Shown: positions 19,842 to 55,413 of the stretch, piece after piece
How the letters are laid out: each line of letters opens with the position of its first letter
How positions within the stretch are numbered: the first letter of the stretch is position 1
Source: Pyrinomonadaceae bacterium
Lineage (GTDB): Bacteria > Acidobacteriota > Blastocatellia > Pyrinomonadales > Pyrinomonadaceae
Reading direction: 5' to 3'
Assembly (NCBI GenBank): GCA_035273425.1
Contig: DATEPB010000058.1
Location: 44,590 to 108,589 of the forward strand
DNA length: 64,000 bases
Position numbers and translations under genes: made by a program
The notes under the pieces: generated by a model
Seen by the model: the letters and a program-made list of their open reading frames with translations, nothing else
Databases searched by the model: none
Told to the model about the DNA's origin: nothing

Positions 19842-20423
19842 ATGGCATTCGCTGCATTAATAATCGCCATTATTAGCTTAATATCTACTGTTGTTCTCGG
19901 CACCAAGAACTACAGCAAATCTAAAAGGCATGAATTCTTCCAAAGGCGCGACCACTGTTTTCAAGCAATATCAAACTTTAATGCTAAGAATTCCGAGACT
20001 CGTCTAAGTGGAGCCAGGTTTACAACCATTGCTACTGAGAAAGCGTCAACAGCCGTCCCTCAGAAGTATGAGGAACTAAATAAGACCCTCATAGTTAACA
20101 TCAGAACTCTGGCGACAAATATTCAGTCGCAAGCGGAAGAATGGGATAACCAAATTGAGCGACTTCATAAGCTTTGCGCTGGTTATACCTCAGTAAAAGA
20201 CGCGGAAAATATTGAAGAGGTTATCGCAATCGCCCAGCTTTCATCAGACCAGATAAAAAGGATTAATGAGATTTACCTCTCGACATTACACATACTCGAA
20301 ACTACCAATCCAAAAATGGAAACAGACTTAGCCGAAATGCGTAAAATGGAATTGCAATTAGCTGCGGTAAAGCTGGAATCTAAGGAGTTAAATGAAAAAG
20401 CCCCGGCGAAGGGGCTTTACTAG
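19842..20423 (+). CDS. Hypothetical protein with N-terminal TM helix and coiled coil (AT-rich orphan)
   Basis: 193-aa ORF: MAFAALIIAIISLISTVVLG..., then long heptad-like Q/E/K-rich helices. Visibly lower GC than its neighbours. Confidence 0.5.
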   Translation: MAFAALIIAIISLISTVVLGTKNYSKSKRHEFFQRRDHCFQAISNFNAKNSETRLSGARFTTIATEKASTAVPQKYEELNKTLIVNIRTLATNIQSQAEEWDNQIERLHKLCAGYTSVKDAENIEEVIAIAQLSSDQIKRINEIYLSTLHILETTNPKMETDLAEMRKMELQLAAVKLESKELNEKAPAKGLY

Positions 20424-20610: not shown

Positions 20611-20703
20611 TTCTCTGTGCAATCTCAGTGTTCTCTGTGTCTCTGTGGTTTAGTAAGCATGCGACTCGACAATCCACCACAGAGGCACAGAGAACACAGA
20701 GAT
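20611..20703. repeat. Inverted array hairpin, CTCTGTG / CACAGAG unit
   Basis: GTTCTCTGTGTCTCTGTGG (20630-20648) pairs with CCACAGAGGCACAGAGAAC (20677-20695). Extra unit copies lie on both sides. Confidence 0.65.
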
Positions 20704-20754: not shown

Positions 20755-21483
20755 ATGGAAATAGACAGACTCTCAATTCGCGAACGCCCCGAAGGCTTCC
20801 CTCTGATGCATCAGAGTTGGGGAAAGCTGCTCTTCATGCATTGGCCCATCGACGCTAGTATTCTGCGCAGCCAAATTCCAAAACAATTAGAGATTGATAC
20901 CTTTGATGGTTCGGCCTGGATCGGCGTGATTCCGTTTACGATGTGGGGTATTCGGGCGTCGTTTCTTCCGGCCATTCCGGGCACCGATGCCTTTCATGAA
21001 TTGAACGTCCGCACCTATGTTCATTTGAATGGCGTTCCCGGTGTCTGGTTCTTTTCCCTGGATGCGGCGAATAGCATGGCGGTTTGGGCAGCGCGGCAGT
21101 TTTACCACCTGCCGTATTTCAACGCCGAGATGTCTCTTGAACAGAACGCCGAGACGATAAGTTATTCATCAGTTCGTCAGGATGATAATGGTCCAACGGC
21201 GGATTTCGCGGCCACGTGGTCCATTGGAAACCATTTGCCGACCGCGGACCCCGAGTCTCTCGAGTTCTTTCTGACTGAGCGGTATTGCTTGTACAGTGAA
21301 AATGAAGGGCAGCTATATCGCGCGCTCATTCATCACCAACCGTGGCCCTTGCAGGAAGCGTCAGTGTCACAGTTTGCTTCGACGATGACTGAATCACTTG
21401 GCGTGAAGACGCCGCAGGAGAAAGCTCGCCTTCTATACGCGGAAGCTATCGACGTGGAGATCTGGCCCTTGAAAAAAGTGTAA
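20755..21483 (+). CDS. DUF2071 (YqjF-like) family protein
   Basis: LLFMHWPI...AWIGVIPF...ELNVRTYV pattern recalled from the DUF2071 family. Confidence 0.65.
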   Translation: MEIDRLSIRERPEGFPLMHQSWGKLLFMHWPIDASILRSQIPKQLEIDTFDGSAWIGVIPFTMWGIRASFLPAIPGTDAFHELNVRTYVHLNGVPGVWFFSLDAANSMAVWAARQFYHLPYFNAEMSLEQNAETISYSSVRQDDNGPTADFAATWSIGNHLPTADPESLEFFLTERYCLYSENEGQLYRALIHHQPWPLQEASVSQFASTMTESLGVKTPQEKARLLYAEAIDVEIWPLKKV

Positions 21484-26636: not shown

Positions 26637-26683
26637 CGCTCGAATTCATTTCTTCAAATTTGTTCAATCGAGAAATTCCAAGA

Positions 26684-28123
26684 ATGTCGACTACGCTAGC
26701 TACCAAGAGTCCTGCCTGGACCATCTCTGATTACCTCGAAGTTCATGAGGGACAACTGAATATTAACGGCGCGAACGCGTCCGAACTCGTGCAAAAGTAC
26801 GACTCGCCGCTGTTCGTATTCTCCGAACCACGCATCAAGTCAAACATCCGGCGCCTGACCAGCGCTGCCCGATCCGTCGATCACCCCATTCGTTTTTTTT
26901 ACGCGTCAAAAGCTAATTCAAACATGGCTGTCCTTAAGACGGTCCTCGAATGTGGCATCGATGTTGAAGTTAATAGCGGCGGTGAACTCTTCAAAGCTCT
27001 GCGCATCGGGTTCCGACCCGATCAGATCATCTTCAATGGAACCAGCAAGAGCGCTGGTGAGCTTGACGATGCAGTGAGAGCAGGCATCTATGCAATCAAC
27101 GTTGATTCCATCTACGAAATCGGCCTCGTCGAGGAAGCAGTTAAGCGGGTAGCCGCGGCAGACGGCACTAGCATGAAGCCTGCGCGCATCGTGCTGCGTC
27201 TCGTCCCTGAAATTGGAACCAGATCGCATTTGGGATTACAAACAGCTCTGCTCACTTCGAAGTTTGGAATTTCGTCTTCGGAGGTGCTCGACGCCTTTCG
27301 CCGAGGCTTACAAAACAGAGATCTGATCCACGTCTGCGGCATTCATATTCACGTGGGCTCGCAGACACCTGATGTAGAGCCCTTCGCCGAAGCCTTTCGC
27401 AGCATGTGGGAACACCTGGTCACGATTCACCGCGAAACTGGTCACACGCTCGAACACATCAACCTCGGCGGCGGAATTCCCGTCAACTACCTGCGCGATC
27501 GATCACAGGCTGATCAGCTTCCCGAACATGAACGCGATATGTTGGGAGCCGATCTTGAACCCCAGGTCGTCCTGACCGAGGCCCTGCGAGTGGCGCGTGA
27601 GTCGGCCCGCGAAGCTCAGGCTGAGCATCTCCTGGATCAGACAACTCTCTTGCTGGAACCCGGTCGCAGCGTTATCGCTGACGCCGGGTTGGTGTTGACG
27701 ACTGTGCTCAATATCAAAACTCGTCCAGAGACGGGAGACGTGTGGCTGTTAACGGATGCGGGCTACAACATCATGTTGTCGATGAACAATTATAAGTGGT
27801 ACTACCACCTCGTCTCAGCGAGTCGCGCGGGAGATCCACACGCCAGCGATTACAAAGTGGCTGGACCATTATGTGATTCAGGTGACGTCTATTTTGATAT
27901 CGAGCGCCAGGGGCGTTTGCCTGACTACCGGAAACTGCCTGCGAACGTTCAGCCTGGCGAAGTGCTGGCATTACTGAATTCGGGCGCATACTCGCTGGCG
28001 CAAATGTTTCACTACAACGGTCGACCGTTACCGGCAGCGGTCATGGTTAAAGACGGCGGCACAGTTGATCTGATCCGTCGACGAGATACTTACGACGACT
28101 TGCTAACCAACGACGTCTGGTAA
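26684..28123 (+). CDS. Orn/DAP/Arg-type (fold III) PLP decarboxylase
   Basis: FYASKANSN (PLP lysine), GGGIPV and AGPLCDSGD motifs. The start was set at ATG 26684. Confidence 0.8.
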   Translation: MSTTLATKSPAWTISDYLEVHEGQLNINGANASELVQKYDSPLFVFSEPRIKSNIRRLTSAARSVDHPIRFFYASKANSNMAVLKTVLECGIDVEVNSGGELFKALRIGFRPDQIIFNGTSKSAGELDDAVRAGIYAINVDSIYEIGLVEEAVKRVAAADGTSMKPARIVLRLVPEIGTRSHLGLQTALLTSKFGISSSEVLDAFRRGLQNRDLIHVCGIHIHVGSQTPDVEPFAEAFRSMWEHLVTIHRETGHTLEHINLGGGIPVNYLRDRSQADQLPEHERDMLGADLEPQVVLTEALRVARESAREAQAEHLLDQTTLLLEPGRSVIADAGLVLTTVLNIKTRPETGDVWLLTDAGYNIMLSMNNYKWYYHLVSASRAGDPHASDYKVAGPLCDSGDVYFDIERQGRLPDYRKLPANVQPGEVLALLNSGAYSLAQMFHYNGRPLPAAVMVKDGGTVDLIRRRDTYDDLLTNDVW

Positions 28124-28129
28124 CTGTTA

Positions 28130-28659
28130 GTCCACTGTCCAAAGTCCAAGGTCCAAGGTCGCTAAGATAACCACCCTTTGGAGTGGCCGCGTGACCGCTA
28201 ATATTCACCCTCATTAGTCCTTGGAGGTGAATCATGAGAATTGAACGATTTGAGGATTTGGAATCGTGGAAGAAAGCAAGAGAATTAACCAACAGGATTT
28301 ACGATACAACCCGCGGTGACTATTTCAGCAGGGACTTTGTTCTGAAAAACCAAATTCGGCGAGCTTCGATCTCAATCGTCTCCAACATTGCCGAAGGGTT
28401 TGAACGATGTGGAGACAAGGAATTCCTTCAATTTCTCGCAGTAGCGAAAGGGTCATGCGGCGAAGTTCGGGCGCAACTCTACATAGCGGTGGATCAAGGG
28501 TATCTCTCTCAAGACGTGTTCGAGAATTTGTCTTTGATTGCAAATGAGATTGGCCGACTGATCTCTGGGCTAATGAAATATCTTCGTAATTCGGAGTTCA
28601 GAGGAAATAAATATCGTTAGTCAGGCCAAACTTTGGACATTGGACTTTGGACATTGGAC
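28130..28659. repeat. Heptamer-array inverted-repeat cassette (GTCCAAG unit) enclosing a four-helix-bundle ORF
   Basis: Left arm GTCCACT GTCCAAA GTCCAAG GTCCAAG (28130-28157). Right arm TTTGGAC ATTGGAC TTTGGAC ATTGGAC (28632-28659). Confidence 0.75.
28234..28620 (+). CDS. Four-helix-bundle protein (23S rRNA intervening-sequence protein / Avd-like family)
   Basis: FEDLESWKKARELTNRIY...NQIRRASISIVSNIAEG...FLQFLAVAKGSCGEVRAQL is the hallmark pattern of this family. Confidence 0.85.
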   Translation: MRIERFEDLESWKKARELTNRIYDTTRGDYFSRDFVLKNQIRRASISIVSNIAEGFERCGDKEFLQFLAVAKGSCGEVRAQLYIAVDQGYLSQDVFENLSLIANEIGRLISGLMKYLRNSEFRGNKYR

Positions 28660-28672
28660 TCTTTAAAAGAAC

Positions 28673-30085
28673 ATGAGCACAAAACATCATGAGCTGGTTC
28701 GCGGTCTTGGCCCAATCGCTGCGATTTCCATTAACGTCGGCAACATCATAGGCACCGGCATCTTTCTCAAAGCGCGGGTGATGACCTGCAATGTCGGTAC
28801 ACCTACGCGCGTGATACTGGCCTGGGTTGCTGCCGGTTTGTTAGCACTAGCCGGCGCCCTCACTTATGCAGAGTTAACTACCATGCGGCCGCACGCTGGT
28901 GCTGAGTATGTGATCACCAAGGACGCCTATGGCCGGGTCTGGGGTTTCTTGAATGGCTGGTCACAGTTTCTGATCTCACGCACCGCTTCCGCTGCAGCTC
29001 TTGCCGTTGGGTTTGCAATCTTCATGAACGATCTGATGGGCGGCAATCTTAAATCTGCCGCGTATGCCAGTTTCACGATGCCTCTGTTCGGTCATACCGT
29101 CGAGTTGAACAGCTTAACCATAATCGCCTTGATCACGATCGCAGTTACCACGCTCATCAATTGTGCCGCAGTAAGTGTCAGCGGACATGTCGCTTCAATT
29201 ATCACAATATTGAAGGTTGTCATTGTCCTTGGCGTCGGCCTCGCTGCGTTCTTCTATCAGGACGGCAGCTGGGGACATTTCAGCATGGCGAGTGAGGCAG
29301 CCTGTAAGGGCGAGGTAACCGGCGGAGGGATGCTTGCCTTCAGCGCCGCGATGGTTGGAGCACTCTGGGCATATGACGGTTGGAACAACATTTCCTATAT
29401 GGCCGGAGAGGTGAAACATCCTGAGCGCAATCTGCCGTTGGCGCTGATTGCCAGCATGCTCATCATCATCGTGCTCTATGTCATCGTGAATGTCAGTTAC
29501 TACTACGTGATGACGCCCACTGAGGTGGCGAGTGTAGACAGTAGCGCCAGCTCGGTTGCGGCTGAGGCAATCAAGAGAGTACTCGGGCCCGCTGCGGTGA
29601 CGATGATGGCAGGTGTCATGATGCTCTCGTCCTGGGGTTCGCTGCAGTCTTCAATTCTGGGCACCGCCCGCATTCCGTATGCGATGGCTCGCGACGGAGT
29701 CTTCTTCCAAAGTCTGGCTCGGGTTTCAAAGAACACAAAAGTGCCGGTGATCTCCCTGGTTGTTCAGGGAGTGTGGGCGGCGGTATTGACACTCTCAGGT
29801 TCATTTGACCAATTGACTGACATGGCGATTTTCGCCTTCTGGCTCTTTTACGGGCTGGTAGCTGCGGCGGTATTTGTTTTTCGGTGGCGAGAACCGAATG
29901 CCGAACGGCCTTACAAAACGTGGGGATATCCGGTAGTGCCCGGTCTGTTTGTGTTGACGACGATCTATCTGATCGTAACTACGATCTACAACTATCCCGT
30001 GAGATCAATCGTTGGCCTCGCAATCATCGCCGCGGGTCTGCCGGTTTACTTTTATTTTGCTTCGAAGAATCCGGAGAGCCAGTAA
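28673..30085 (+). CDS. APC-superfamily amino acid permease
   Basis: 470 aa, about 12 hydrophobic segments, N-terminal IGTGIFL motif. Confidence 0.85.
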   Translation: MSTKHHELVRGLGPIAAISINVGNIIGTGIFLKARVMTCNVGTPTRVILAWVAAGLLALAGALTYAELTTMRPHAGAEYVITKDAYGRVWGFLNGWSQFLISRTASAAALAVGFAIFMNDLMGGNLKSAAYASFTMPLFGHTVELNSLTIIALITIAVTTLINCAAVSVSGHVASIITILKVVIVLGVGLAAFFYQDGSWGHFSMASEAACKGEVTGGGMLAFSAAMVGALWAYDGWNNISYMAGEVKHPERNLPLALIASMLIIIVLYVIVNVSYYYVMTPTEVASVDSSASSVAAEAIKRVLGPAAVTMMAGVMMLSSWGSLQSSILGTARIPYAMARDGVFFQSLARVSKNTKVPVISLVVQGVWAAVLTLSGSFDQLTDMAIFAFWLFYGLVAAAVFVFRWREPNAERPYKTWGYPVVPGLFVLTTIYLIVTTIYNYPVRSIVGLAIIAAGLPVYFYFASKNPESQ

Positions 30086-30228
30086 GCAGTGAGCAGTGAG
30101 CAGTGAGTCTACGAAGGTCCAAGTTGAAGAGTTCTGTACTTGCGGAGCGTGATAGCTGAGAGCGATTTCGTCATGCCGAGCGTTATTACCTACCAACCGC
30201 TCACCGCTCACCGCTCACTGCTCACTGC
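30086..30228. repeat. Heptamer-array inverted repeat (GCAGTGA unit)
   Basis: GCAGTGA x3 (30086-30106) faces TCACCGC TCACCGC TCACTGC TCACTGC (30201-30228). It lies between convergent stops. Confidence 0.75.
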
Positions 30229-30237
30229 TTACCGGCG

Positions 30238-35411: not shown

Positions 35412-35509
35412 GTCCAAGGTCCAAGGTCCAATGTCCTTCCTATGGGAGCGGTCCCGTAAACCCAGGCTCCCAAAATTCAATCTAAGTAAGAGGACTTTGG
35501 ACTTTGGAC
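35412..35509. repeat. Heptamer-array inverted repeat (GTCCAAG unit), no enclosed ORF
   Basis: GTCCAAG GTCCAAG GTCCAAT (35412-35432) faces GGAC TTTGGAC TTTGGAC (35492-35509). Confidence 0.75.
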
Positions 35510-51583: not shown

Positions 51584-51779
51584 AAGGATGAAGGCGGAAG
51601 GATGAAGGATGAAAGCCTTTATGCTTCCGCTTTTTTGTGTCGCCCGATAAGCGGAATGGTCCACGAAATCACTCGAATACGCACTAATCTCTTTCTTGCT
51701 ACTTCCTCTAATTTCGTGGATCGTTCTTTCGCAGCTTGATCTCTTTAGCTTCATCCTTCATCCTTCAGCCTTCATCCTT
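51584..51779. repeat. Heptamer-array inverted repeat (AAGGATG unit) with nested CACGAAA-type hairpin
   Basis: AAGGATG AAGGCGG AAGGATG AAGGATG (51584-51611) faces CATCCTT CATCCTT CAGCCTT CATCCTT (51752-51779). Inner pair CCACGAAAT / ATTTCGTGG. Confidence 0.8.
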
Positions 51780-51785
51780 AACATC

Positions 51786-53750: not shown

Positions 53751-53760
53751 ATCGGGGAAT

Positions 53761-53867
53761 GTCAGTAGTCAGTGGTCAGTTGTTAGTTGCCCTGTACACC
53801 AACTAAGGAATGTCCACAGCTCCGAGAACAAGGAATAGCAACTGACCACTGACAACGGACAACTGAC
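53761..53867. repeat. Heptamer-array inverted repeat (GTCAGTN unit)
   Basis: GTCAGTA GTCAGTG GTCAGTT GTTAGTT (53761-53788) faces AACTGAC CACTGAC AACGGAC AACTGAC (53840-53867). It ends 1 nt before the purA ATG. Confidence 0.8.
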
Positions 53868-53868
53868 C

Positions 53869-55188
53869 ATGAAAAAAATCATCGTTGTAATCGGCGCCCA
53901 GTGGGGTGATGAAGGCAAAGGCAAGATTGTCGATCTGCTCGCCGAGCATTTCGATATCGTCGCCCGGTACCAGGGTGGCCACAATGCCGGCCATTCAGTC
54001 CAAGTAGGCGAGCAGTCGTTTGTACTGCACCTCCTGCCATCAGGAATCGTTCACCGCGGTAAGACCTGCGTACTTGGCAACGGGATGGTGATCGATCCGA
54101 AAGCGTTTTTTCAGGAAGCCGATCGGTTGATGGAGCAAGGTATTGAAGTCTCGCCCGAGCGCGTGAAGATTAGTTCGCGCGCGCATCTGATATTGCCTTA
54201 TCACCGCGCCCTGGACCACACGAGTGAGGAACGGTTGGGCAACGAAAAGGTTGGCACCACCTTGCGTGGGATTGGTCCAGCTTACGAAGACAAGGCCGGC
54301 CGCCGTGGCATACGGACCGCCGATGCGCTCGTTCCGGAAGTGCTGCGCTCTCGCATCGAACGTAATCTCGAAGACGCTAATCGGATCATCGAGGCTTACG
54401 GTGGAAAGCCACTTGATGCTGATGAAATGTTTCAAGAAATGTCGCAGCTTACTGAACGGTTGGGGGCATTCATCGGAGACACGACTCACTTCTTAAACGT
54501 CGCAGCCTCAGAAGGCCGTTCGATACTGCTGGAGGGCGCCCAGGCAACATTGCTCGACGTCGATCACGGCACGTATCCGTTTGTTACTTCTTCATCGACT
54601 ACTGCGGGCGGAGCTATTGTCGGTTCCGGCCTCGCGCCGCAACGTCTAACAGGCGTGCTTGGCATTGTGCGCACCTACACCACGCGCGTTGGCGAGGGAC
54701 CATTTCCCACAGAGATGGTGGAAGGTGAAGCGGAGATGGGCCAACTCATCCGTGAACGCGGGCGTGAATACGGCGCCTCAACTGGACGCCCACGCCGCTG
54801 CGGCTGGTTTGACGCTTTCGCCACCCGTTACGCCGCCGAGATCAACGGTTTCACGTCGGTCGCTCTGACGAAACTCGACGTTCTCGACGCGTTAGAAGAA
54901 ATCAAAGTCTGCACCGGGTACGAACTCGACGGACGCATCTGTGAATCACTTCCGGCTGTGGCCCAGGATCTTCGACGCGTCGAACCGATTTACGAGACTC
55001 TACCCGGCTGGCAGACTTCGACAGTAGGAACTACCAAGATGAGTTCCCTTCCCGATAAGGCACGCAAGTATGTCGAATTTCTTTCCGAGAAGATTGGTGT
55101 AGAGATCGGTCTCGTCTCAACCGGTCCGGAACGCTCGCAAACAATCGTCGTTCGAGACTCCGCGGTCGGGAGCTGGCTTAACGACTAG
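53869..55188 (+). CDS. purA: Adenylosuccinate synthetase
   Basis: [12 protein letters not shown]-loop; 439 aa. Confidence 0.95.
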
Positions 55189-55193
55189 TTCAC

Positions 55194-55325
55194 CTCCTTG
55201 GAGTGCGCCGCCTTGTCGGCGCTTTGGCCGGTCGCGGCCTTGCGCGACCTGGTACGGACTATTCAACCAGCGGCGCAGAGGCCGCCGCATAACAAAGCGC
55301 CGCCGGGCCGGCGCACTCCAAGGAG
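55194..55325. repeat. Palindromic repeat, CTCCTTGGAGTGCGCCGCCTTGTCGGCGCTTTGG family
   Basis: Arm 55194-55227 is mirrored (degenerate) at 55293-55325. Confidence 0.8.
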
Positions 55326-55344: not shown

Positions 55345-55372
55345 TTTTTTTTACTTTGGACATTGGACATTG
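55345..55372. repeat. Solo heptamer array (TTTGGAC ATTGGAC ATTGGAC AATAGAC)
   Basis: Same unit as the right arms at 28632-28659 and 35496-35509. No facing arm was found nearby. Confidence 0.5.
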
Positions 55373-55413
55373 GACAATAGACTTCCTTATTATGCCTTCA
55401 CCGTGTTTCATGT

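Follow-up and report, generated by a model that had tools for sequence, protein, structure and literature searches.

The gap between a decarboxylase gene and a permease gene in a Pyrinomonadaceae (Acidobacteriota) metagenome-assembled genome (MAG) is filled by a four-helix-bundle (4HB) open reading frame (ORF) enclosed between inverted arrays of tandem heptanucleotides. The element lies at positions 28127–28660 of the stretch analyzed here, which is 64,000 nucleotides (nt) long and is referred to as the window, and it is very probably a discrete, copyable, stem-bracketed cassette resident at operon junctions; the finding generalizes well beyond the window. Our overall reading, to which we assign a probability of about 0.55, is that it is a cassette of the type seen in the intervening sequences (IVSs) of ribosomal RNA (rRNA), selfish or domesticated, whose stem acts on the transcript. 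Relatives are cited by locus labels, from L001 onward, where they need to be told apart. The cassette and its host cistrons comprise:

26660–28123, plus strand: pyridoxal phosphate-dependent decarboxylase of the ornithine/diaminopimelate/arginine (Orn/DAP/Arg) type, the upstream host cistron (PF02784, E = 2.6e-43; PF00278, E = 3.4e-11)
28127–28160, plus strand: left arm, a TTAG terminus followed by GTCCACT GTCCAAA GTCCAAG GTCCAAG GTC
28161–28233, plus strand: cassette leader, with a conserved CCGC(T/G)TGACCGC motif, TTCACCCTC and the Shine-Dalgarno (SD) sequence GGAGGTGAA
28234–28620, plus strand: cargo 4HB ORF, 128 amino acids (aa), PF05635 / TIGR02436
28630–28660, plus strand: right arm, the inverse heptamers ACTTTGG ACATTGG ACTTTGG ACATTGG ACT
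28673–30085, plus strand: APC-family amino-acid permease, the downstream host cistron (PF13520)

The element fits tightly between its neighbors, with 5 nt between the decarboxylase stop codon and the first heptamer arm, and 12 nt between the end of the right arm and the permease ATG, an interval in which no Shine-Dalgarno sequence for the permease is visible. Tandem Repeats Finder reports the left array (28129–28160) as 4.6 copies of AGTCCAA and the right array (28630–28660) as 3.9 copies of TTGGACA, both with period 7; together the arms form a 31-nt inverted repeat, 90% complementary, with its halves 470 nt apart, and a terminus of the TTAGT.../...ACTAA type is seen again in relatives of the cassette. 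With at most one mismatch allowed, the window holds 11 occurrences of the pattern GTCCAANGTCCAA where 0.30 would be expected, a count that none of 100 shuffles reached. Both arms are paired in the predicted minimum free energy (MFE) fold of the 553-nt spacer (-188 kcal/mol, z = -5.9), and the two arms closed by a tetraloop are predicted at -49 kcal/mol. An independent Logan contig carrying the same gene stops right at the right arm. The sequence-only reading of this DNA had described the stem and the IVS-type 4HB ORF as one element between decarboxylase and permease, and every feature it listed is present where it had been placed.

The cargo ORF is a clear member of PF05635 (118.8 bits against a cut-off of 33.8, E = 1.5e-34) and TIGR02436 (114 bits against a cut-off of 24, E = 3.6e-33), and it matches the Protein Data Bank structure 2gsc, that of XCC0516, with E = 5.5e-13; its Pfam matches are PF05635 and PF22296 alone, and no HUH/Y1 transposase domain is among them. 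Within the leader, TTCACCCTC (28204–28212) pairs with the Shine-Dalgarno sequence GGAGGTGAA (28223–28231), about 10 nt away, in the predicted single-sequence MFE fold, and both motifs are kept in 13–17 related cassettes, which suggests that translation of the 4HB protein may be held in check by an anti-SD hairpin. RNAalifold gave no pairs for a consensus structure of the leader, the proposed pairing resting on the single-sequence fold and on motif conservation, not on covariation. A consensus scan of the cassette found neither a promoter nor a terminator of its own, with no sigma-70-type promoter and no convincing -10 partner for the conserved TTGACC-like leader motif; because no promoter is recognizable, the cassette is most likely transcribed with its host operon. 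The spacer has no Rfam match even at E <= 1, the window as a whole yielding just two tRNAs and no rRNA, and PADLOC gave no match that would place the cassette in a defense system.

The arms accompany the ORF well outside this locus. A scan of species-representative genomes gave 80 loci whose proteins are 57–78% identical to the cargo, 77 of them with full flanks, and these were compared with 385 random positions in the same loci as controls. A bracketing inverted repeat (score >=15) is present at 72 of the 77 4HB genes and at one of the 385 control positions, a census, of the kind proposed in the sequence-only reading, that came out in its favor; period-7 arrays stand on both sides of 63 of the 77 genes and around none of the controls. 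The geometry is conserved across the 77 loci, with an arm of ~30 nt, a left arm that ends a median of 42 nt before the ATG and a right arm that starts a median of 9 nt after the stop codon. The heptamer units differ among loci (GTCCAAR, GTTCAAR, GTTTCAR, GTCCCAA, GTCTCAA, GTCCACA and GGTTCAT), even within single MAGs, and the two arms of a locus match each other: at position 3 of the unit the arms pair as 170 C:G, 97 T:A and 10 other combinations, so that Watson-Crick pairs make up 96% within loci but 53% once partners have been reassigned among loci; the median complementarity score is 23.5 between the two arms of one locus and 12 with arms taken from other loci. The number of unit copies varies among close relatives. 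The ORF is intact in 75 of the 80 relatives and has a dN/dS of ~0.07 (16 non-saturated pairs); it is under purifying selection.

Two of these loci show that the cassette has been copied as a unit. L005 and L009 lie in one MAG, in different gene contexts and with unrelated flanks, and encode proteins that are 94.5% identical; their 89% nucleotide identity extends over ~530 bp, exactly from outer arm end to outer arm end. The suggestion that the unit is a small mobile cassette gains from this pair of copies and from the polymorphism of orthologous junctions described below. We note that cassettes of the same subfamily (57–63% identity, GTCCAAR/GTTCAAR-type arms) are also found in MAGs labelled Verrucomicrobiota, Pirellulaceae, Binatia, Desulfobacterales, Deltaproteobacteria and Terriglobia (L039, L048, L051, L052, L059, L061, L063, L070–L072, L076, L079 and L080); these occurrences reflect either horizontal transfer between phyla or mis-binned contigs.

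The placement of the cassettes is strikingly uniform. All 80 relatives lie between protein-coding genes, and of the 51 cassettes with two identifiable neighbors, 47 point in the same direction as both. A median of 2 nt separates the left arm from the upstream stop codon, which is often contained within the TTAGT/TAGT terminus, and the right arm ends a median of 7 nt before the downstream start codon. Very short spacers between co-transcribed genes are where the cassette lands, or the only places where it survives. Thirteen contexts are found repeatedly in different genomes, including HlyD|AcrB (21 loci) and periplasmic binding protein|ABC ATPase (13 loci), with decarboxylase|permease, CN-hydrolase|dihydroorotate (DHO)-dehydrogenase-like, RNase J|SDR and RecG|RsmD among the others. 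Because the nearest 4HB relative occupies the same genomic context for 53 of 66 loci, inheritance after insertion is mainly vertical, over long periods in which purifying selection maintains the protein.

Comparison of orthologous junctions shows presence and absence of the cassette at the same site, as the sequence-only reading had anticipated. A metagenome scan with the C-terminus of the decarboxylase recovered 80 loci with decarboxylases 85–90% identical, of which 74 have a resolvable junction. Thirty-five of the 74 are empty, with a spacer of 3–110 nt and no arms of the cassette's heptamer type, as in L140, where the junction reads taa-CGG-atg; ten carry a cassette of the window type with its arms, 13 carry a 4HB gene of only 34–40% identity, four have other short inserts and 12 an extra gene. 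Both arms are kept at L122, where the middle of the ORF has been lost to leave an ORF-deleted cassette, and remnants of arms are kept at L090 and L128; from the junctions taken together it follows that the arms come with the ORF and that the junction was colonized more than once. The flanks of the nearest filled and empty junctions are only ~75–80% identical, too diverged to define a target duplication, and the single hint of one comes from L082, whose cassette has a CGG on either side, taaCGG[cassette]CGGAAatg as against taaCGGatg. In L095, L096, L129 and L148 a third gene, of 460–500 aa and with a twin-arginine-like N-terminus, lies between decarboxylase and permease, and in the three-gene operon of these relatives 4HB cassettes are found at either junction.

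Similar units are found in distant bacteria. A tblastn search against plasmids found 4HB genes almost only on cyanobacterial and Riemerella plasmids, and inverted heptamer arrays surround the gene in 10 of the 12 plasmid loci read, each with a unit of its own (GGGGAAA, GGTTYAA, TAGGGAG, CTAAAAG, GGTGACA, GGGAAAA, AGTCAGG, GGGAACA, GCAGAGG and GGGTGTA). Among 18 loci from cultured organisms, comprising plasmids of Nostoc, Anabaena, Calothrix, Aulosira, Geminocystis, Pseudanabaena and Riemerella and chromosomes of Xanthomonadales, 16 have period-7 arrays on both sides, and across the 18 the arrays reach a density of 4.6 per kb beside the 4HB gene, compared with 0.35 per kb elsewhere. The unit of repeats plus 4HB gene recurs at operon junctions in at least four phyla, Acidobacteriota, Cyanobacteriota, Bacteroidota and Pseudomonadota, where the taxonomy is reliable, and in further phyla if the MAG bins are trusted. 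A search for relatives in viral contigs found none, and carriage by phages was rejected on that basis.

Several of the plasmid 4HB genes lie between cas6 and cas4, or between two ribonucleotide reductase genes. Heptamer-armed cassettes on Pseudanabaena and Anabaena plasmids (L167, L176), and a Pleurocapsa example in an earlier study (PMC3936711), stand between cas6 and cas4 or between cmr3 and cmr2; that study read such 4HB genes as candidate cas genes, and the cassettes among cas and cmr genes are more likely to be junction insertions than CRISPR-associated genes. Homologues of XCC0516 are situated between accB and accC in Xanthomonas, Stenotrophomonas, Lysobacter and Dyella. XCC0516 was considered as a resident of an rRNA IVS and rejected as such, the context being accB|accC in all six Xanthomonadales loci fetched. 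The left arm at these loci, made of GGGAATC units, overlaps the 4HB start codon, and the right arm, of NATTCCC units, abuts the accC ATG; in L168 and L171–L175 the GGGAATC repeats encode the N-terminus MENRES or MGNRES, and gene callers place the start differently (109 as against 125–129 aa). This arm unit is the same heptamer as the dispersed repeat of X. campestris, in which GGGAATC has been reported at ~186 sites with 70 inverted pairs (PMC4692102).

How such an insertion could be tolerated within an operon is suggested by the predicted structure of its transcript. In the operon message the arms would pair into a duplex of ~30 bp, at whose base the upstream stop codon would meet the downstream start codon; the 4HB message, which has a strong ribosome-binding site of its own, would stand apart as a loop. 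If RNase III is taken to require a duplex of at least ~22 bp, the arms provide it, and the stem is predicted to be long enough for a substrate of this enzyme, as in the Coxiella 23S rRNA IVS. Acting in this way, the stem would cut out the 4HB message or else shield the host cistrons from the inserted segment, in both cases making the insertion tolerable, and the tandem repeats within the arms may allow pairing to be restored in a shifted register once slippage or mutation has occurred. For the step that involves the RNA stem and RNase III we put the odds slightly short of even.

Several points weigh against reading the element as an IVS-type cassette whose stem acts on RNA. Co-transcription and RNase III cleavage are here inferred, and some of the cyanobacterial copies are antisense to their neighbors. 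With symmetric scoring, the mismatches in the stems number 64 G:T against 46 A:C (p = 0.10), a spectrum that gives no clear sign of selection on the sense RNA as opposed to the DNA or the other strand; DNA-level gene conversion within the hairpin could also keep the arms complementary. An RNase III cut between cistrons normally destabilizes the downstream message, which is hard to reconcile with residence at essential junctions such as accB|accC. Neither a transposase nor an integrase nor a target-site duplication was found, the 3-bp CGG at L082 being the sole hint of the last. Finally, the distant 4HB subfamily at the same decarboxylase–permease junction (34–40% identical) is mostly without bracketing arms and has a complete heptamer hairpin upstream of the gene. 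The idea that bracketing arms are a universal feature of PF05635 was rejected for this reason. The upstream hairpin of that subfamily is of the type ATTCCAG/CTGGAAT and lies ~30 nt before the start codon (L092, L101, L110, L112, L117, L129, L151, L094 and L121); L129 and L151 have a third array downstream too.

The window contains seven period-7 sites in its 64 kb, three of them with the GTCCAAR unit and four with other units (hairpins of CAGTGAG, AAGGATG and GTCAGTN, and ATCTCGA once). The four cargo-less hairpins and the solo arm are all in intergenic gaps, which the hairpins span or nearly span:

30080–30234, no strand assigned: cargo-less CAGTGAG hairpin with an 88-nt loop (-80 kcal/mol), filling the gap to a convergent gene
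35412–35509, minus strand: cargo-less hairpin of the cassette's unit, GTCCAAR, with a 55-nt loop, between minus-strand genes for DUF5009 and GYD proteins
51584–51781, plus strand: cargo-less AAGGATG hairpin between rho and glgA, with a nested CCACGAAATCAC hairpin in its loop
53760–53869, plus strand: cargo-less GTCAGTN hairpin between trxA and purA, its right arm running into the purA ATG
55353–55382, plus strand: solo right-arm-type array, TTGGACA x3, 32 nt upstream of tRNA-Lys

The hairpins at 30080–30234, 51584–51781 and 53760–53869, with their other units, go beyond what had been noticed from the sequence alone. The stop codon of the permease falls within the first heptamer of the 30080–30234 hairpin, and the 35412–35509 hairpin has the polarity of the cassette on its transcribed strand. 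Within the 64-kb window the cassette's unit is found again in one cargo-less hairpin and one solo arm, which may or may not amount to a dispersal like that of repetitive extragenic palindromes beside their tyrosine transposases. The proposal that arms and cargo are separable is upheld in part: the cargo-less copy at 35412–35509, the solo arm and the internally deleted ORF of L122 speak for it, and the cargo-less hairpins of the window show no recognizable similarity to the cassette interior. As deletion derivatives of the cassette these hairpins were tried and rejected, since their loops align to its interior no better than shuffled sequences do and derivation is unproven. In 955 kb of fetched DNA the loops of heptamer hairpins are bimodal in length, ~37 being of 0–200 nt and cargo-less and ~89 of 390–550 nt, and the sole type of cargo within them is 4HB.

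Other repeats share these intergenic sites. The nested hairpin in the rho|glgA loop (window 51655–51725) has the form GGTCCACGAAATCAC...AATTTCGTGGATCG, and a closely similar element, CCACGAAATCACACGAA...TTCGTGTGATTTCGTGGATCG, is present in the decarboxylase–permease junction of L128 (3790–3860); together they make up another small family of repeats that occupies the same sites. A GC-rich palindrome of ~130 nt at 55195–55324, GGAGTGCGCCGCC...GGCGCACTCC (-90.8 kcal/mol), just upstream of the solo arm and tRNA-Lys, looks like a different class of repeat, resembling repetitive extragenic palindromes. A tandem-armed hairpin with a unit of ~8–9 nt, TCTCTGTG... / ...CACAGAGA, lies at 20617–20702 between the plus-strand genes 19842–20423 and 20755–21483, and similar small hairpins of the CACAGATTA type, with tandem arms of ~8–9 nt and unrelated to the cassette, are found in a few of the longer spacers among the otherwise empty decarboxylase–permease junctions (L115, L118, L142 and L152).

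The relationship between protein and repeats can also be read in ways that put the function elsewhere. In one, the 4HB protein is a dedicated trans-acting partner that binds, protects or propagates heptamer hairpins, much as REP-associated tyrosine transposases (RAYTs) serve the repetitive extragenic palindromes (REPs) and the paired elements built from them (REPINs): each 4HB gene would sit inside a hairpin of its own repeat type, and the cargo-less hairpins of that type would be its targets. This is compatible with the description of the element as a cassette and places the function in the interaction of protein and repeat, not in RNase III processing. It accords with the association of 4HB genes and heptamer arrays across phyla with different units, with the GTCCAAR unit of the cargo-less hairpin and solo arm in the window, with the identity of the Xanthomonadales arm unit to the dispersed X. 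campestris repeat (PMC4692102), with strong purifying selection on a protein that has no other known role, and with the heptamer hairpin that the distant subfamily keeps beside its gene even where the gene is unbracketed; a study of Nostoc moreover postulates a heptamer-repeat-binding protein yet to be identified (10.1101/2022.06.06.494920). Against this, no nuclease or recombinase activity is known for the 4HB fold. A partner role finds a parallel in the homologous protein Avd of diversity-generating retroelements (DGRs), without which the DGR reverse transcriptase makes no cDNA. Three of the window's five other heptamer sites, however, have unrelated units; sharing of units between cassettes and nearby cargo-less hairpins in other loci amounts to only about half, a figure that has no chance baseline in a clade where GTCCAAR is common; and the loops of the cargo-less hairpins are unrelated to the cassette interior. 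That PF05635 proteins are the missing partners of heptanucleotide-repeat hairpins (cyanobacterial short tandemly repeated repetitive (STRR) sequences, the Xanthomonas GGGAATC repeat and GTCCAAR), which they would bind, process or propagate in trans at operon junctions elsewhere, is a serious alternative, though one that we regard as less likely than not. Were it true, this would be a RAYT/REPIN-like system built on a non-enzymatic nucleic-acid-binding barrel, and rRNA IVSs would be the special case in which a cassette landed in an rRNA helix.

The heptamer hairpins might instead be native devices of intercistronic control (stabilizers of mRNA, attenuators or elements of translational coupling), like the REPs and bacterial interspersed mosaic elements (BIMEs) of enterobacterial operons, with the 4HB gene a passenger, or an autoregulated RNA-binding regulator, lodged in their loops. 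Cargo-less hairpins of various units do fill the stop-to-start gaps of rho|glgA, trxA|purA and DUF5009|GYD, the recurrent junctions are typical of unequal subunit expression (binding protein|ABC ATPase; membrane fusion protein|resistance-nodulation-division pump), right arms abut or overlap downstream start codons, and other small tandem-armed hairpins are present at some empty junctions (L115, L118, L142 and L152). Most empty orthologous junctions, however, have just 3–40 nt and no hairpin, and because of this the arms must be taken to arrive with the ORF rather than to precede it; moreover, the duplicated unit of L005 and L009 consists of arms plus ORF, and in 955 kb the 4HB gene is the sole cargo and the loop lengths fall into two classes, 0–200 and 390–550 nt. 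We judge a host device improbable. More improbable by far is that the arrays have no function and are microsatellites produced by replication slippage, gathered by chance in AT-rich spacers around a small, often transferred gene. Heptanucleotide repeats are the most abundant class of long simple-sequence repeats in many bacteria, and slippage of the polymerase has been given as their origin (cited in PMC4679880 and PMC4692102), and the unit copy number does differ between close relatives; yet slippage alone cannot make two arrays inverse complements of each other, as they are at 72 of 77 loci against one of 385 controls with covarying paired positions, nor does it account for an architecture conserved across phyla, and the complementarity is not an artefact of detection, given the medians of 23.5 for own arms and 12 for those of other loci. 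The least credible alternative is a DGR accessory gene, in which the ORF would be an Avd serving a reverse transcriptase and the repeats would belong to a template repeat/variable repeat (TR/VR) pair. The similarity that prompts it, to bAvd PF22296 (E = 8e-7) and NF033474 (E = 0.0024), is weak, at 29.9 bits against a cut-off of 40 and 18.2 bits against a cut-off of 80, respectively. No reverse transcriptase is found among the genes within ~8 kb upstream or the next genes downstream, the neighborhood consisting of DinB, TonB_C, SnoaL, AMP-binding, decarboxylase, permease, an unknown 325-aa protein and MurE; the heptamer arms are the only repeats, 7-nt arrays with no TR/VR pair; and there are no relatives in viral contigs. 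The label 'Avd' that the sequence-only reading had attached to the ORF was accordingly dropped, the protein falling below the thresholds of both Avd models and the nearby genes checked including no reverse transcriptase.

A 4HB gene within a stem of inverted heptamer arrays is one architecture in which three puzzles, each familiar on its own for decades, come together: the heptamer repeats over-represented in many bacterial genomes (the STRR sequences and the Xanthomonas GGGAATC), the PF05635 family, and the ORF-bearing IVSs of 23S rRNA. To our knowledge PF05635, 'S23p / four helix bundle', has thousands of members and two crystal structures and no function. A full-text literature search, with most subscription journals outside its reach, turned up papers on each of the three but found no link between PF05635 and heptamer repeats and no operon-junction cassettes of this kind, and an earlier description is possible. 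A selfish cassette neutralized by its own RNA stem would represent a novel mode of gene residence within operons, and if the 4HB protein acts on the repeats, there is an easy experimental route to both the family and the repeats, as XCC0516 has already been purified and crystallized. There are practical consequences as well, in that cassettes break metagenome assemblies, as with the Logan contig that ends at the right arm, and inflate annotations based on 'guilt by association', for example as candidate cas genes (PMC3936711).

Among known systems, the closest likeness is to the IVSs of 23S rRNA in Coxiella burnetii, Leptospira and Brucella, which carry the same PF05635 / S23p family in the loop, with the ORF enclosed by terminal inverted repeats and a stem of ~28–30 bp. 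The likeness to an rRNA IVS that the sequence-only reading had drawn proved closer than stem and ORF alone, for the Coxiella IVS is reported to have a 28-bp terminal stem and tandem heptamers, three to four copies of GACAGAT in variable number, just upstream of the S23p ORF; it is excised in vitro by recombinant RNase III, with the 5' processing site at the first heptamer repeat (PMC4990558). The cassette differs in lying at an mRNA operon junction and not in helix 25 or 45 of 23S rRNA, in that both of its arms are whole heptamer arrays, in that its processing is predicted rather than observed, and in the state of its ORF, which is intact, under purifying selection and preceded by a strong Shine-Dalgarno sequence, whereas that of the Coxiella IVS is decaying and apparently untranslated. 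Because it is located outside 23S rRNA, the position that defines them, we do not class it as an rRNA IVS.

MITEs (miniature inverted-repeat transposable elements) of the Correia/nemis and enterobacterial repetitive intergenic consensus (ERIC) types are likewise inverted-repeat insertions in the intergenic parts of operons and form long RNA hairpins, and the nemis hairpins of Neisseria are cleaved by RNase III, which alters mRNA stability. MITEs, however, code for no protein, and their terminal repeats are conserved in sequence and accompanied by target-site duplications, whereas the cassette codes for a conserved protein, its arms vary and no clear duplication is seen. With the REP/REPIN and RAYT systems it has in common a position between co-transcribed genes, and it may also share with them a gene flanked by inverted short repeats that occur without the gene as hairpins in other intergenic regions of the same genome. 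The RAYT is an HUH/Y1 transposase with single-stranded DNA hairpin cleavage activity, unlike the 4HB protein, which has no known catalytic activity; a REP is a single palindromic unit and the arms are tandem heptamer arrays; and there are several 4HB cassettes per genome as against usually one RAYT per REP family. The Avd proteins of DGRs have a homologous four-helix-bundle fold, with a pentameric barrel in solved relatives (2gsc) and a weak PF22296 match, yet the cargo falls below the family thresholds, has no reverse transcriptase or TR/VR nearby among the genes checked and occupies a different genomic setting. The arms themselves compare best with the STRR, GGGAATC and GGGGAYT repeats of heterocystous cyanobacteria, Xanthomonas and Nostoc, which are tandem heptanucleotide arrays, mostly intergenic and between co-oriented genes, near the ends of ORFs and often in convergent (inverted) pairs, with a position conserved across species and a variable length (PMC4692102). 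Those repeats have been described as simple sequence repeats or G-quadruplex motifs without an associated gene, and STRR sequences have been described for heterocystous cyanobacteria, whereas the unit here is GTCCAAR and the host an acidobacterium; nonetheless, it is exactly arrays of the STRR / GGGAATC type that bracket the 4HB genes of cyanobacterial plasmids and Xanthomonadales. The cassette is not a component of an Avd/DGR, MITE or RAYT system, and its arms are STRR-like repeats.

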